In this document: one piece after another, positions 41,963 to 45,176 of the stretch
Position numbering within the stretch: position 1 is the stretch's first letter
How the letters are laid out: the number at the start of each line of letters is the position of its first letter
Sequence record: NC_027395.1
DNA length: 64,000 nt
Reading direction: 5' to 3' (one strand)
Source of the DNA: Escherichia phage vB_EcoP_SU10
Translations under genes and position numbers: made by a program
Notes under the pieces: generated by a model
What the model was told of the DNA's origin: nothing
The model's input: the letters and a program-made list of their open reading frames with translations, nothing else
Database searches by the model: none

Positions 41963-43993
41963 TTAACCTCTATTCAATGAACATTTAGGGGAATTACAAT
42001 AAACTTGATTCATAGAACCAAGCGTACAACTTTCAGCATCGCGCCACGGAATCTGCTTAAAACACTCTGAGCAGTAGCCGAGGGTTGACCACATGGCTTT
42101 GGTGAAGTCAGTGCTTCGGTTTCCGTCGAAGCTGACAACAGTTTTGCGGAGAGTTGTTCGTGATTCAGGAAACACACCTGCTTTCTCAGCAGGTTCCTCC
42201 TTTTTTGGCTTAGTTGAGATTGCAAAAATACTGTTGCTACGTTTCTCAACATAAGCATCAACAACATCCTCCAGAGTGATGCCTGTCTGTTTCGCTGAGG
42301 AAGGTAATACAGTCATACGACCGATCATATCTTCAGTTACACGTAAAGCAAATTCAGGACGACGGGCGTTTGTTGTATCTGTTGCTTTAATCCAGATATA
42401 ACCATCTTTGATCGTAGCATTAGATACTTTCTTCTTTACTTCTACAGCGCAGACTTTACAGATATCTTCACCACGAAGACGACTGAGTTCCTCATCAAAC
42501 TCATTCTCTGTTTTAACTTCACCACAGATTTCACAAACACCAATAGGAGTCTCCTCCTCTTCTTCCTCTTTAGGTTTAGTCAAACCTTCCAGACATTCAG
42601 GATGCCAGTAGCACTGATATGCGAAGACTGCTTTAGGTGCATCCTTCCAATCAATGTGCTTATCACAACCACCACAATCGCCATGAGAGTGTGCTTCCCA
42701 GAATTTACGAGTGATAGTAACACCATTCTTGTTGACGAAACTATCATTCATATCAAAAGGGATATCATCATCAAAGTCAGCAGTAGTAGACTCAGGCTCC
42801 TTTTTCTCCAGAGATGGGTCAACAAAACGACCTGCTGTGATCACTAAGCGAACCATAGCATTAACTTCGGAGATGCAGGATACTGTCCCACGGTAAACAA
42901 TTTTAGGGTCTTTCAGGGCATCCTGATAAGCCTTAATGTCTACGTTATGAACATCACCTTCGATATACTCTTGAGACTTCTCATCGTAGATATAACCAAT
43001 CATCTTACCACGAGAAGGAACAGCACCAGCAGTTGCATAAGGAACAAACTCATGCGGAGTGATTTCCACAGTCATATCTCGGCGAATGTCAATGTTTCGA
43101 TCGCTTGCGATTTTGTTTTGACTTACCACTGCGTTTCTTCGACGAACGTCTGCCGCTGTCACTCCCGGCTTCGTGTCGTAAGGATTGCTTGTATTGCTTT
43201 TTGAGGAACTTTGATAGTTGCTTTGGCTGTAGTTGTTCGAGTAATAACTGCCCCAACGATTGGCTACCGTAAAAACCGGAAGCTCGTGGGCGACCTCTTC
43301 AACCAGAGTCATGCTGTTGTTTGACATATCAAAGATATATTCTGTACCAACTTTACATTCAAAATGCTCATCAATACGGTTCTTGTGAGATCTAGAACGC
43401 TTCAGAATCCACATCAACATGTCTTCTTCAGAAGCACCAAACCAATCTCTGTTACAACGTGCGAGGTGGAATGGACGCTCTTCGTTACGGATGATATGAA
43501 GACGGTTATCAGAAGCATCATGCCAGATTAAGGTGAAAGCACCATCCAGCTTTTGAATAGTCTCTGCTGCACCAATAGTGTTAATAGAGTGGCAGATGTT
43601 CTCACTGTCTACCTCGAAGTTTTTGCTGTCAGGTAACAGATCTTGGTCCATCAAGGTTCCATTATGAACCAGAGTGATGTTACCATGTTGGAAAGGATGG
43701 GCGTTCTTGGCGTTAACTGCACCTTTCGTTGCATGACGACTGTGACCAACAATCCATGAAGGTGCTACAGTGTAAGCTGTTTCACCAGTGGTGTGCTTCT
43801 TGTACTCATCTTGTAGGATGAATGCGAAAGAAGGAAGAGCTTCTTTATAAGTGAAGACTTCCTTAGTACTTTTACGCTGACCAAAGATACCGGAGGAATG
43901 TTGTCCTCGGAATACTCCAGCATAAAAGAGTTGGTTAAATACGTCTAAATCAGTGCTTGACAGATTACCGCCAGCTAATACGATGCCACAAAT
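41963..43993 (-). CDS. class II (Ntn) glutamine amidotransferase fused to a Cys-rich C-terminal domain; apparent non-canonical (ATT) start
   Basis: Hand translation upstream of track start gives (I)CGIVLAGGNL...FRGQHSSGIFG ... HATKGAVNAKNAHPFQHGNITLVHNGTL, like PurF/GlmS N-termini; C-terminus has several CxxC pairs. Confidence 0.7.
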   Translation of the reverse strand: MCGIVLAGGNLSSTDLDVFNQLFYAGVFRGQHSSGIFGQRKSTKEVFTYKEALPSFAFILQDEYKKHTTGETAYTVAPSWIVGHSRHATKGAVNAKNAHPFQHGNITLVHNGTLMDQDLLPDSKNFEVDSENICHSINTIGAAETIQKLDGAFTLIWHDASDNRLHIIRNEERPFHLARCNRDWFGASEEDMLMWILKRSRSHKNRIDEHFECKVGTEYIFDMSNNSMTLVEEVAHELPVFTVANRWGSYYSNNYSQSNYQSSSKSNTSNPYDTKPGVTAADVRRRNAVVSQNKIASDRNIDIRRDMTVEITPHEFVPYATAGAVPSRGKMIGYIYDEKSQEYIEGDVHNVDIKAYQDALKDPKIVYRGTVSCISEVNAMVRLVITAGRFVDPSLEKKEPESTTADFDDDIPFDMNDSFVNKNGVTITRKFWEAHSHGDCGGCDKHIDWKDAPKAVFAYQCYWHPECLEGLTKPKEEEEEETPIGVCEICGEVKTENEFDEELSRLRGEDICKVCAVEVKKKVSNATIKDGYIWIKATDTTNARRPEFALRVTEDMIGRMTVLPSSAKQTGITLEDVVDAYVEKRSNSIFAISTKPKKEEPAEKAGVFPESRTTLRKTVVSFDGNRSTDFTKAMWSTLGYCSECFKQIPWRDAESCTLGSMNQVYCNSPKCSLNRG

Positions 43994-44072
43994 TTTCTAA
44001 TCCACCTGAAGGGTAAACCCTTTCATCTAATTAACCTTTAAATTGTGCCCCTTTGTCAGAGGCACCCATTGA

Positions 44073-45176
44073 TTACAGCGCTTGCTCTAACTGATTTTCC
44101 AGATGGTCTGGAATGTACCCTGTGATATTGCTATCACTGTGACCAGACTCACGTAGTAAGTCAAAAATAGCACGAATACGTTGTTCTGGAGCGTGTCTTA
44201 CTTGAGATAGGTCTGCTGTACGAAGCATAACCAAAATCTCTTGATACAAGTTGTTAGCGTTCCCTCGAACATATCCAAGGAATCCATAGAAGTCTGACAT
44301 AAGACGTAAGTCAACAAGAACCTCTCCGTTGGAGTTGGTTCGACGTAAACGAATACGACCAGACTGTTCTACTTCATGAGAACGGCAATACAAAACATCA
44401 CGGGCCATACAATAACCTGAATGCAAATCAGATTCATCCAGATTGTAATCCAGAGGAAGGTAAGGAAGCATTGGGGCAAATCGTACAGTATTTAAATGCT
44501 CAATAAACTGATCATTGCTCATCTCTGCGTTATCTAAAGCCAGCTTCTTCAACATCAAGAAGCGGTTAACCAGATTGAGAAGTTGACCACGTTTCCACTT
44601 AGGCTCACTGATACGGAACTCAATTGAACCGTATTGGGCAAGTGGCAGAAGGTTCAGAGATGTATATTTATCCCATGAACGAACCAGACGGTTGAAGAAT
44701 TCTTCACCATCGTAGTTAAATGCGTCAGAGGCATTCATTACCTGTGCTTGTACCACTGCAAACGCAGGGCAGAAATTGCTACGGTAACGATGGTAGCCTG
44801 AACACTTGAACAGCATCTTTTCATAGAAGGTCCAAGCAAGGATGGTCTTCTTGAGGATATTACTATCAGCATCCCTCATATCCATATGAACGTGAGTAGA
44901 GCAACGCCAAGTCCCCTCGGCGTGCGATTCAGCTACTGCTTCACTCAGGTTGTTGATAGCGTCTAACAACTCCTGTCCGTTGTAAGGTCGTGAACATACC
45001 ATTTCACAACCATTACGCAGGGAACCATCCTCTGTGCAATCCCACATATCTGCTTCGATATGTTCAGAACCTTCGAGTTCAAGTTCAATACCGACACCGC
45101 ACTGAAGTGCAATTGAACTATGCGCCTCAGTTAAACGACCTTCTCGATATCCAAAAGTTTGCGCTACAGTTGTCAT
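44073..45176 (-). CDS. glutamine-synthetase-like amidoligase (carboxylate-amine ligase)
   Basis: GVGIELELEG near N-terminus and WRCSTHVHMD; resembles GCS2/amidoligase E-x-E and HVH motifs. Confidence 0.55.
   Translation of the reverse strand: MTTVAQTFGYREGRLTEAHSSIALQCGVGIELELEGSEHIEADMWDCTEDGSLRNGCEMVCSRPYNGQELLDAINNLSEAVAESHAEGTWRCSTHVHMDMRDADSNILKKTILAWTFYEKMLFKCSGYHRYRSNFCPAFAVVQAQVMNASDAFNYDGEEFFNRLVRSWDKYTSLNLLPLAQYGSIEFRISEPKWKRGQLLNLVNRFLMLKKLALDNAEMSNDQFIEHLNTVRFAPMLPYLPLDYNLDESDLHSGYCMARDVLYCRSHEVEQSGRIRLRRTNSNGEVLVDLRLMSDFYGFLGYVRGNANNLYQEILVMLRTADLSQVRHAPEQRIRAIFDLLRESGHSDSNITGYIPDHLENQLEQAL

Follow-up and report, generated by a model that had tools for sequence, protein, structure and literature searches.

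The minus strand of the genome of Escherichia phage vB_EcoP_SU10 (NC_027395.1) encodes a glutamine amidotransferase gene that very probably begins with the rare start codon AUU. The whole 64,000-nucleotide (nt) stretch analyzed is called the window, and all coordinates are window positions. The phage belongs to the phiEco32-like podophages of E. coli (Kuravirus, Gordonclarkvirinae), and the gene, the ortholog of phi32_83, spans 676 codons at 41963–43993, the same 2031-nt extent as in phiEco32. Judged from the sequence and its relatives, translation would start at the AUU at 43991–43993 with the help of a Shine-Dalgarno (SD) sequence, and removal of the initiator methionine would then expose the nucleophile Cys1. 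The ATT start is already annotated in public phiEco32 records. New here are the invariance of the leader, the recurrence of ATT and ATC starts together with a hairpin-SD module, and the association of these starts with homing-endonuclease cassettes.

Across the start site the minus strand, on which all features described here lie, reads TAG ATG AAA GGG TTT ACC CTT CAG GTG GAT TAG AAA ATT TGT GGC ATC GTA. ATT is the sole near-cognate codon between the in-frame TAG (43997–43999) and TGT (43988–43990), the codon for the N-terminal cysteine that would be catalytic after methionine removal, and no ATG, GTG or TTG lies in frame between them (TAG AAA ATT TGT). The SD sequence AGGTGG (44002–44007) is separated from ATT by an 8-nt spacer, ATTAGAAA, and pairs with the 3′ end of 16S rRNA with a duplex energy of -7.0 kcal/mol. 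The TAG stands one codon 5′ of ATT and ends a mini-open reading frame (mini-ORF) of nine codons (43997–44026, with its ATG at 44024–44026; MKGFTLQVD, then stop). This mini-ORF is in frame with the amidotransferase gene, and the resulting order is stop, 3 nt, AUU. A first-pass annotation, made from the DNA letters alone, had described the ATT directly before the cysteine codon, the AGGTGG 8 nt upstream and the nine-codon mini-ORF ending in frame just 5′ of ATT; all are found when the minus strand is read. It had also reported a frame open for 112 codons before position 43654. The long open stretch is there, and its exact extent is AAA, ATT and 112 codons, or 114.

Listing of ORFs by canonical starts gives 41963–43654 for this gene. 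The first canonical in-frame start is a TTG at 43652–43654 (codon 114, counting ATT as 1), with an ATG at 43649–43651 directly after it. The first-pass annotation had placed this TTG beyond the whole glutaminase domain. It does lie 3′ of Cys1, Arg28, His83 and Asn110-Gly111, but it falls midway in the domain of ~235 residues. Among window ORFs of at least 100 codons, no real gene other than that of the amidotransferase has a long open frame ahead of the first canonical start. The one further ORF with such a stretch (42 codons) is an antisense shadow ORF.

Orthologs in other phage families start ATG TGT GGN ATH GT (Met-Cys-Gly-Ile-Val, MCGIV), as in Proteus 3H10_20, Salmonella 7-11, Cronobacter GAP52, Vibrio Vp_R1 and Aeromonas LAh_9, and so do the majority of metagenomic relatives. 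The window ATT aligns with the ATG of the distant orthologs. Because these orthologs start MCGIV, the N-terminus is placed at the codon directly before Cys. Over the 113 codons from ATT up to TTG, differences between genera are distributed by codon position as, for example, 16/13/59, and the codon changes comprise 44 synonymous versus 22 non-synonymous. By these counts the 5′ stretch is under coding selection and is translated.

The site is also strongly conserved. In 67 phage records the 65 nt around it match at 100%, and another 31 records carry a single-base difference; in the three of these that were read, the changed base is a synonymous GGC to GGT. Over the 65 nt searched, no phiEco32-like record falls below 98.5% identity, and ATT is fixed in ~98 records. 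Every phiEco32-like genome examined has the ATT, the SD at 8 nt and the in-frame stop one codon before ATT. A nucleotide search with the ~2.3 kb surrounding the start site found 98–99% identity with ~68 records, further records being more distantly related. The window locus is 98% identical in nucleotides to that of phiEco32.

By profile, fold and catalytic residues the product is a predicted class II (N-terminal nucleophile, Ntn) glutamine amidotransferase. It matches the Pfam family GATase_6 (E = 1.1e-14), with GATase_7 above the cut-off, and the family profile matches GlmS, PurF and AsnS chains in the PDB. An AlphaFold model of the N-terminal 240 residues has a predicted local distance difference test (pLDDT) score of 93.5 and places the first beta-strand (E2-7) directly after Cys1, as expected of the four-layer Ntn fold. 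The best Foldseek matches are 1xff (the GlmS glutaminase domain), PurF, AsnS and EgtC, with template modeling (TM) scores of ~0.7. Residues C1, R28, H83, N110-G111 and D128 are invariant in nine phage orthologs, C1 and G2 show little or no variation in family alignments, and the HNG motif aligns with His97-Asn98-Gly99 of GlmS. Class II amidotransferases require Cys as the mature N-terminal residue. E. coli PurF, GlmS and AsnB start Met-Cys, and the Met before the Cys is removed.

In the proposed mechanism, initiator tRNA would read the AUU, helped by AGGUGG 8 nt upstream, and the strong SD and the adjacent hairpin would compensate for the weak codon. The initiator Met would then be removed, leaving Cys1 as the nucleophile of the enzyme. 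We infer AUU use itself and Met removal by analogy with infC and pcnB and with the Met-Cys starts of E. coli PurF, GlmS and AsnB.

Some considerations weigh against this start. The amidotransferase was detected in SU10-infected cells with nine peptides, searched against a truncated 63.8-kDa model (PMC4281155); because the search used that model, the proteomics is silent on the N-terminus. No N-terminal sequencing, toeprinting or ribosome profiling of the gene was found in the literature covered, which did not include the original phiEco32 papers. AUU is a poor start codon, with 1–2% of AUG activity in one reporter system and 6–8-fold lower activity in another (PMC3592434; bioRxiv 063800), and the route to sufficient protein from it is inferred. 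Taken with the comparative data, AUU initiation is nonetheless well supported by sequence, and read-through, truncation and sequencing error are not supported.

Start codons were compared across 160 loci encoding relatives from IMG/VR and metagenomes, plus a few from pattern and protein scans. ATG opens 109 distinct leaders, ATT or ATC 15, TTG two and GTG one. GTG and TTG together account for ~18% of starts in bacterial annotations, where ATT is very rare (bioRxiv 063800). The usual preference for GTG and TTG over ATT is reversed in the amidotransferase family. In a rough neighbor-joining tree the ATT lineages are scattered among ATG lineages. The proteins of L091 (ATT) and L082 (ATG) are 96% identical, and L160 (ATT) and L164 (ATG) differ at 15 positions in 1200 nt. 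All 13 ATT/ATC leaders checked have an in-frame TAA, TGA or TAG 0–10 codons upstream, with no canonical start between.

The ATT/ATC leaders also differ from ATG leaders in their initiation signals. As a group they have somewhat stronger SD sequences (median -8.3 versus -6.8 kcal/mol, p = 0.004). A hairpin of at least 5 bp ending 11–22 nt before the start is present in 12 of the 15 ATT/ATC leaders versus 6 of the 109 ATG leaders (Fisher p = 4.5e-10); when the ATG leaders are restricted to those whose spacer reaches 25 nt or more, the count is 4/41 (p = 1e-6). The SD-abutting hairpins all differ in sequence. The window's, AAGGG-TTTA-CCCTT (44009–44022), is one of them, and this 14-mer has no repeat elsewhere in the window. 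Stop/start coupling is not enriched among ATT lineages, since it is usual in ATG lineages too: in 42 of 60 ATG-starting members an ORF ends within 4 nt of the start. One ATG locus, L033 (IMGVR_UViG_3300025276_000050; ~1495–1506), starts ATG TGC TGT GG (Met-Cys-Cys-Gly), so that an additional Cys codon precedes the conserved Cys-Gly.

At four loci an HNH endonuclease gene lies directly 5′ of the amidotransferase gene, which in each case starts with ATT or ATC. The upstream gene is of the HNH_3 type (Pfam) in L091 (IMGVR_UViG_3300020576_000333; ATT) and L044 (ATC), resembles the HNH genes of these two loci in L182 (ATT), and matches phrog_374 in L160 (E = 5.6e-64; ATT). In a limited screen by phmmer and by-eye classification, no upstream endonuclease was seen at ATG-starting loci, whose upstream genes encode amidoligases, GGACT-like proteins, class I GATase-like proteins or an ATP-grasp enzyme. 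L082, the sibling of L091 that lacks an endonuclease gene, starts with ATG, and so does L164, the corresponding sibling of L160.

Alignment of L091 with L082 resolves the insertion exactly. The old ATG TGT GG stays at the left junction as a 4-codon stub (ATG TGT GGT AGT TGA), and at the right junction, C TAA A ATT TGT GGA ATC, the amidotransferase frame is restored with ATT. The cassette carries a perfect sigma-70 consensus promoter, TTGACA-17-TATAAT, before the HNH gene (~998–1060). The L160 endonuclease gene begins with an ATG that overlaps the amidoligase stop and ends with a stop that gives TAG AAA ATT TGT. Four of the 15 differences between L160 and L164 fall within the first 51 nt, a cluster that co-conversion or target-site immunity beside a homing site would produce. 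In relatives, ATT/ATC junctions thus travel with endonuclease cassettes or are left behind by them.

The window shares its junction with such loci. The junction [C/A]AGGNGGATTAGAAAATTTGTGG is common to the window, Aeromonas phage BUCT695, L160 and L179. The L160 junction, CAGGAGGATTAGAAAATTTGTGG, matches the window's CAGGTGGATTAGAAAATTTGTGG, and that of the endonuclease-free L179 is AAGGAGGATTAGAAAATTTGTGG; the L160 and L179 proteins are 33–35% identical to the window's despite the common junction. The 3′ end of the window's mini-ORF also matches the 3′ end of the homing-endonuclease ORF in L160. A second junction type, GGAGATGAGAAAATT, is found in the endonuclease-bearing L182 and the endonuclease-free L038 and L070. 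A junction scan of bacterial genomes returned 14 chance matches and one phiEco32-like contig, and a type-B junction scan added one chance match only.

BUCT695 (L012, NC_070977) belongs to another family, and its protein is ~53% identical to the window's. It holds a decayed HNH_3 gene in an unannotated 246-nt spacer (~705–950) between the amidoligase-like and amidotransferase genes. The remnant consists of an N-terminal fragment (tblastn E = 5.6e-7) and a frame-shifted C-terminal helix-turn-helix-like tail.

The chances are about even that the window junction (SD, TAG, AAA, ATT and perhaps the last mini-ORF codons) is a cassette scar kept as a start region. An endonuclease cassette would once have lain between the amidoligase and amidotransferase genes, and the junction would be its leftover 3′ end. 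Three observations count against such an origin. The window's 79-nt spacer holds no recognizable endonuclease remnant. The BUCT695 remnant is of the HNH_3 type and the L160 junction gene of the phrog_374 type, which are different endonuclease families. The 5′ half of the leader, TAGATGAAAGG, is also present in the ATG-starting GAP52, and part of the leader may thus be ancestral.

A wider proposal is offered more tentatively, as one that falls a little short of even odds. The ATT/ATC starts of this widespread family would be footprints of homing-endonuclease cassettes that target the highly conserved gene start ATG-TGT-GGN-ATH-GT, with the scar serving as a portable start and the position-3 change as protection. 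The 3′ end of the cassette would bring a start region made of a hairpin, a strong SD, 7–8 nt and ATT, and the substitution of T or C for G at the third start-codon position would shield the invaded allele from cleavage. The endonuclease gene would then decay, and the scar would persist as the gene's sole start signal, under extreme purifying selection in phiEco32-like phages. Where ATG is replaced, the third base is changed in every case, and the far more efficient codons GTG and TTG almost never take its place. This pattern points to a possible DNA-level reason for the choice of ATT/ATC, such as cleavage protection at ATG-TGT-GG, over selection for weak translation.

The leader itself is unusually constant. 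In an alignment of the window with KBNP1711, ECBP2 and SU7, a 56-nt run (44041–43986) has zero changes, and this block is unchanged across Kuravirus, Nieuwekanaalvirus and Suseptimavirus. The flanking coding DNA in the same four genomes is ~77% identical and differs at the majority of wobble sites. In the gene, wobble variation begins at codon 3, and the hairpin just 5′ of the invariant block varies too. Within the mini-ORF the wobble positions are just as constant as the remainder of the leader, so selection is not on the peptide. The BUCT695 leader has the same architecture with three changes: a hairpin loop of TTAA, an SD of AGGCGG and one additional base upstream. The stem of its small hairpin is kept while the loop is changed, and its mini-ORF is kept with two amino-acid changes.

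The small hairpin alone is thermodynamically unexceptional. Leader folds compared with shuffles gave z scores of -0.2 to +0.7 for short segments and -1.96 for 116 nt, the latter due to the upstream hairpin. With folding energies this ordinary, the constancy of the leader is not accounted for by predicted RNA structure. A stable RNA switch was rejected, since 46–116-nt folds were no better than shuffles, as was an alternative SD-hiding hairpin, which is not conserved in BUCT695. An Rfam search of the leader returned sub-threshold noise only.

The foremost alternative concerns how ribosomes reach the AUU. Under termination-reinitiation the mini-ORF would be translated, the hairpin melted, and ribosomes would stop at UAG and restart at the AUU 3 nt on. 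This route is possible but unlikely. The order of stop, 3 nt and AUU is as in thrS-infC, where reinitiation contributes about as much as de novo initiation (PMC3592434). An AAAGG lies 9 nt before the mini-ORF ATG, BUCT695 keeps the start, length and stop of the mini-ORF despite its two amino-acid changes, and close stop/start spacing in the 42 of 60 ATG-starting members fits coupled translation. On this account the mini-ORF would be a coupling device that replaces the usual direct stop/start coupling to the upstream gene. However, other ATT lineages have no comparable mini-ORF: that of L179 has four codons and starts from TTG, and L038 and L070 have none in frame. The invariant wobble positions speak against selection on the peptide, and the mini-ORF ATG sits within TAGATGAAAGG, which in GAP52 overlaps the SD.

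Besides AUU initiation, the first-pass annotation had offered read-through of the TAG with propeptide removal. The comparative evidence bears out the AUU branch, and the other ATT/ATC lineages and L160 speak against the read-through branch, which is now very improbable. Read-through from the mini-ORF ATG would give a 12-residue propeptide, to be removed autocatalytically as in Bacillus subtilis PurF, which has an 11-residue propeptide. The length before the Cys is near that of PurF, the mini-ORF is in frame with the gene, and BUCT695 keeps the frame. But the E. coli host uses the standard code, other window genes are read normally, and orthologs begin directly with Met-Cys and have no propeptide. 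Other ATT/ATC lineages have TAA, TGA or TAG at 0–10 codons with no in-frame ATG, GTG or TTG between, and in L160 the read-through product would be the enzyme fused to a 163-residue endonuclease. Neither a recoding signal nor an Rfam family was found in the leader, and its fold is unexceptional. Unlike in B. subtilis PurF, the stop stands one codon upstream and therefore leaves the phage gene no encodable propeptide.

Equally poor prospects attend a start further downstream, at TTG 43654, ATG 43651 or the starts used in other records, which would yield a product without the Cys and make the upstream frame a relic. ORF finders and many GenBank records use such starts, and the SU10 proteomics is compatible with the 63.8-kDa model (PMC4281155). 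Against this, the 113 codons from ATT to TTG show third-position-biased divergence and keep every catalytic residue, the structural model needs residues 1–113 for its fold, and the records choose different codons (11, 46 and 115), as automatic gene calling does. Finally, an ATT produced by sequencing or assembly error, which the first-pass annotation had wanted excluded, or a decaying pseudogene has practically no probability, for only the rarity of ATT starts favors either, the same ATT stands in ~98 independently sequenced related genomes and several metagenome contigs and therefore excludes such an error, and the ORF is intact, under purifying selection and its protein detected.

Initiation at AUU has precedents in E. 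coli infC, which encodes initiation factor 3 (IF3), and pcnB, the two confirmed AUU-started genes of that host, in which AUU is decoded by initiator tRNA (PMC3592434; bioRxiv 063800). In both, as in the phage gene, an SD precedes the AUU. The thrS stop also lies 3 nt before the infC AUU (UAA GGU AUU), compared with UAG AAA AUU in the phage (PMC3592434). In infC, however, the AUU serves autoregulation through IF3 discrimination, whereas the phage gene has no known link to IF3, and the upstream ORF is a real gene, thrS, rather than a 9-codon mini-ORF. Unlike in infC and pcnB, the phage AUU is a lineage-specific replacement of an ATG kept by most orthologs, and its use as a start is predicted. 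A rare ATT start has also been described for Enterococcus faecalis ebpA, predicted in silico, attenuating expression and mis-annotated from a downstream ATG (PMC4447247). There, too, automatic annotation from a downstream codon hid the ATT; ebpA differs in being an experimentally verified bacterial pilus gene and in having no known mobile-element link or N-terminal nucleophile requirement.

The phage enzyme shares its fold, Cys1 and HNG motif with GlmS, PurF and AsnB. It differs in its initiator, ATT against their ATG, and in its 435-residue Cys-rich C-terminal part, which resembles none of their synthase domains. These C-terminal 435 residues (41963 to ~43270) have no Pfam match. The C-terminal two-thirds of the protein contain an acidic stretch and several CxxC pairs, zinc-ribbon-like in appearance.

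In T4 seg/mob-type intronless homing, free-standing endonuclease genes are inserted between conserved phage genes. Likewise, the HNH genes of L091, L044, L182 and L160 lie exactly between the amidoligase and amidotransferase genes, L091 and L160, the two for which the data contain near-identical relatives, have endonuclease-free siblings, and the L160 substitutions cluster at the junction. The window differs in having no endonuclease gene and shares the junction sequence alone. A literature search found no description of an insertion swapping a downstream gene's ATG for ATT or ATC.

Public records treat the start differently. In the phiEco32 records (EU330206, NC_010324), phi32_83 is a 2031-nt coding sequence (CDS) whose first codon is the same ATT. 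The record of BASEL phage Bas91 likewise starts the CDS at ATT, and other BASEL records show a feature over the 5′ end; among the records read, the ATT start is annotated in phiEco32 and Bas91. The gene is begun at ATG, codon 11, in the ECBP2 and SU7 records, at GTG, codon 46, in KBNP1711 and at ATG, codon 115, in Paul. Many phiEco32-like records have no feature over the amidotransferase 5′ end. Most phiEco32-like GenBank/RefSeq records truncate the gene from a downstream ATG, GTG or TTG and lose the catalytic Cys. A protein search with the window's N-terminal domain found no full-length close homolog, the best match being 71% identical, and truncated gene calls for phiEco32-like proteins may be the cause.

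Most public phiEco32-like records thus drop the first 10 to 114 codons of a conserved early gene, including the catalytic cysteine. Gene callers that disallow ATT will go on truncating it, and function predictions and protein databases are affected. Confirmed AUU starts are very rare, with two in E. coli, and this one family has 15 distinct ATT/ATC leaders. Cultivable E. coli phages are available for direct tests, namely phiEco32 and BASEL Bas86-93. If the endonuclease link is true, selfish elements can rewrite the translation start of a neighboring essential-looking gene, and the hairpin-SD-AUU module would be a natural, transferable way to use a weak start codon.

The gene lies in a conserved module of an amidoligase, an amidotransferase and an ATP-grasp enzyme. 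A predicted function of this module in cell-wall or metabolite modification is attributed to Iyer 2009 as summarized in PMC10580990. The upstream neighbor in the window is the amidoligase gene (44073–45176), the phi32_84 ortholog, whose stop lies 79 nt before ATT. Right after its stop codon is a predicted 8-bp hairpin (44045–44065), in which a U-A pair is replaced by C-G, a compensatory change, in ECBP2 and SU7. The hairpin lacks a U tract and is not called by the terminator scan; it may form an mRNA end or serve in processing. In one related record a terminator is annotated at some point within the 2.3-kb match.

In Escherichia phage myPSH1131 (L207, MG983840), a 76-nt tandem duplication inside the CDS would shift the frame, as a real disruption or an assembly artifact. 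The two-piece match of this genome was rejected as a start-related feature, the duplication being internal. A promoter and terminator scan at the site found nothing on the minus strand. The core of the phiEco32 phage-sigma promoter is tAATGTAtA (PMC4281155). Six Grimontviridae-type loci (L007, L008, L009, L018, L020 and L021) carry TTTAAATGTAAA-like motifs ~25–35 nt 5′ of ATG that resemble this core, and the window has a degenerate motif, AAAGGTTAA, at the corresponding place.

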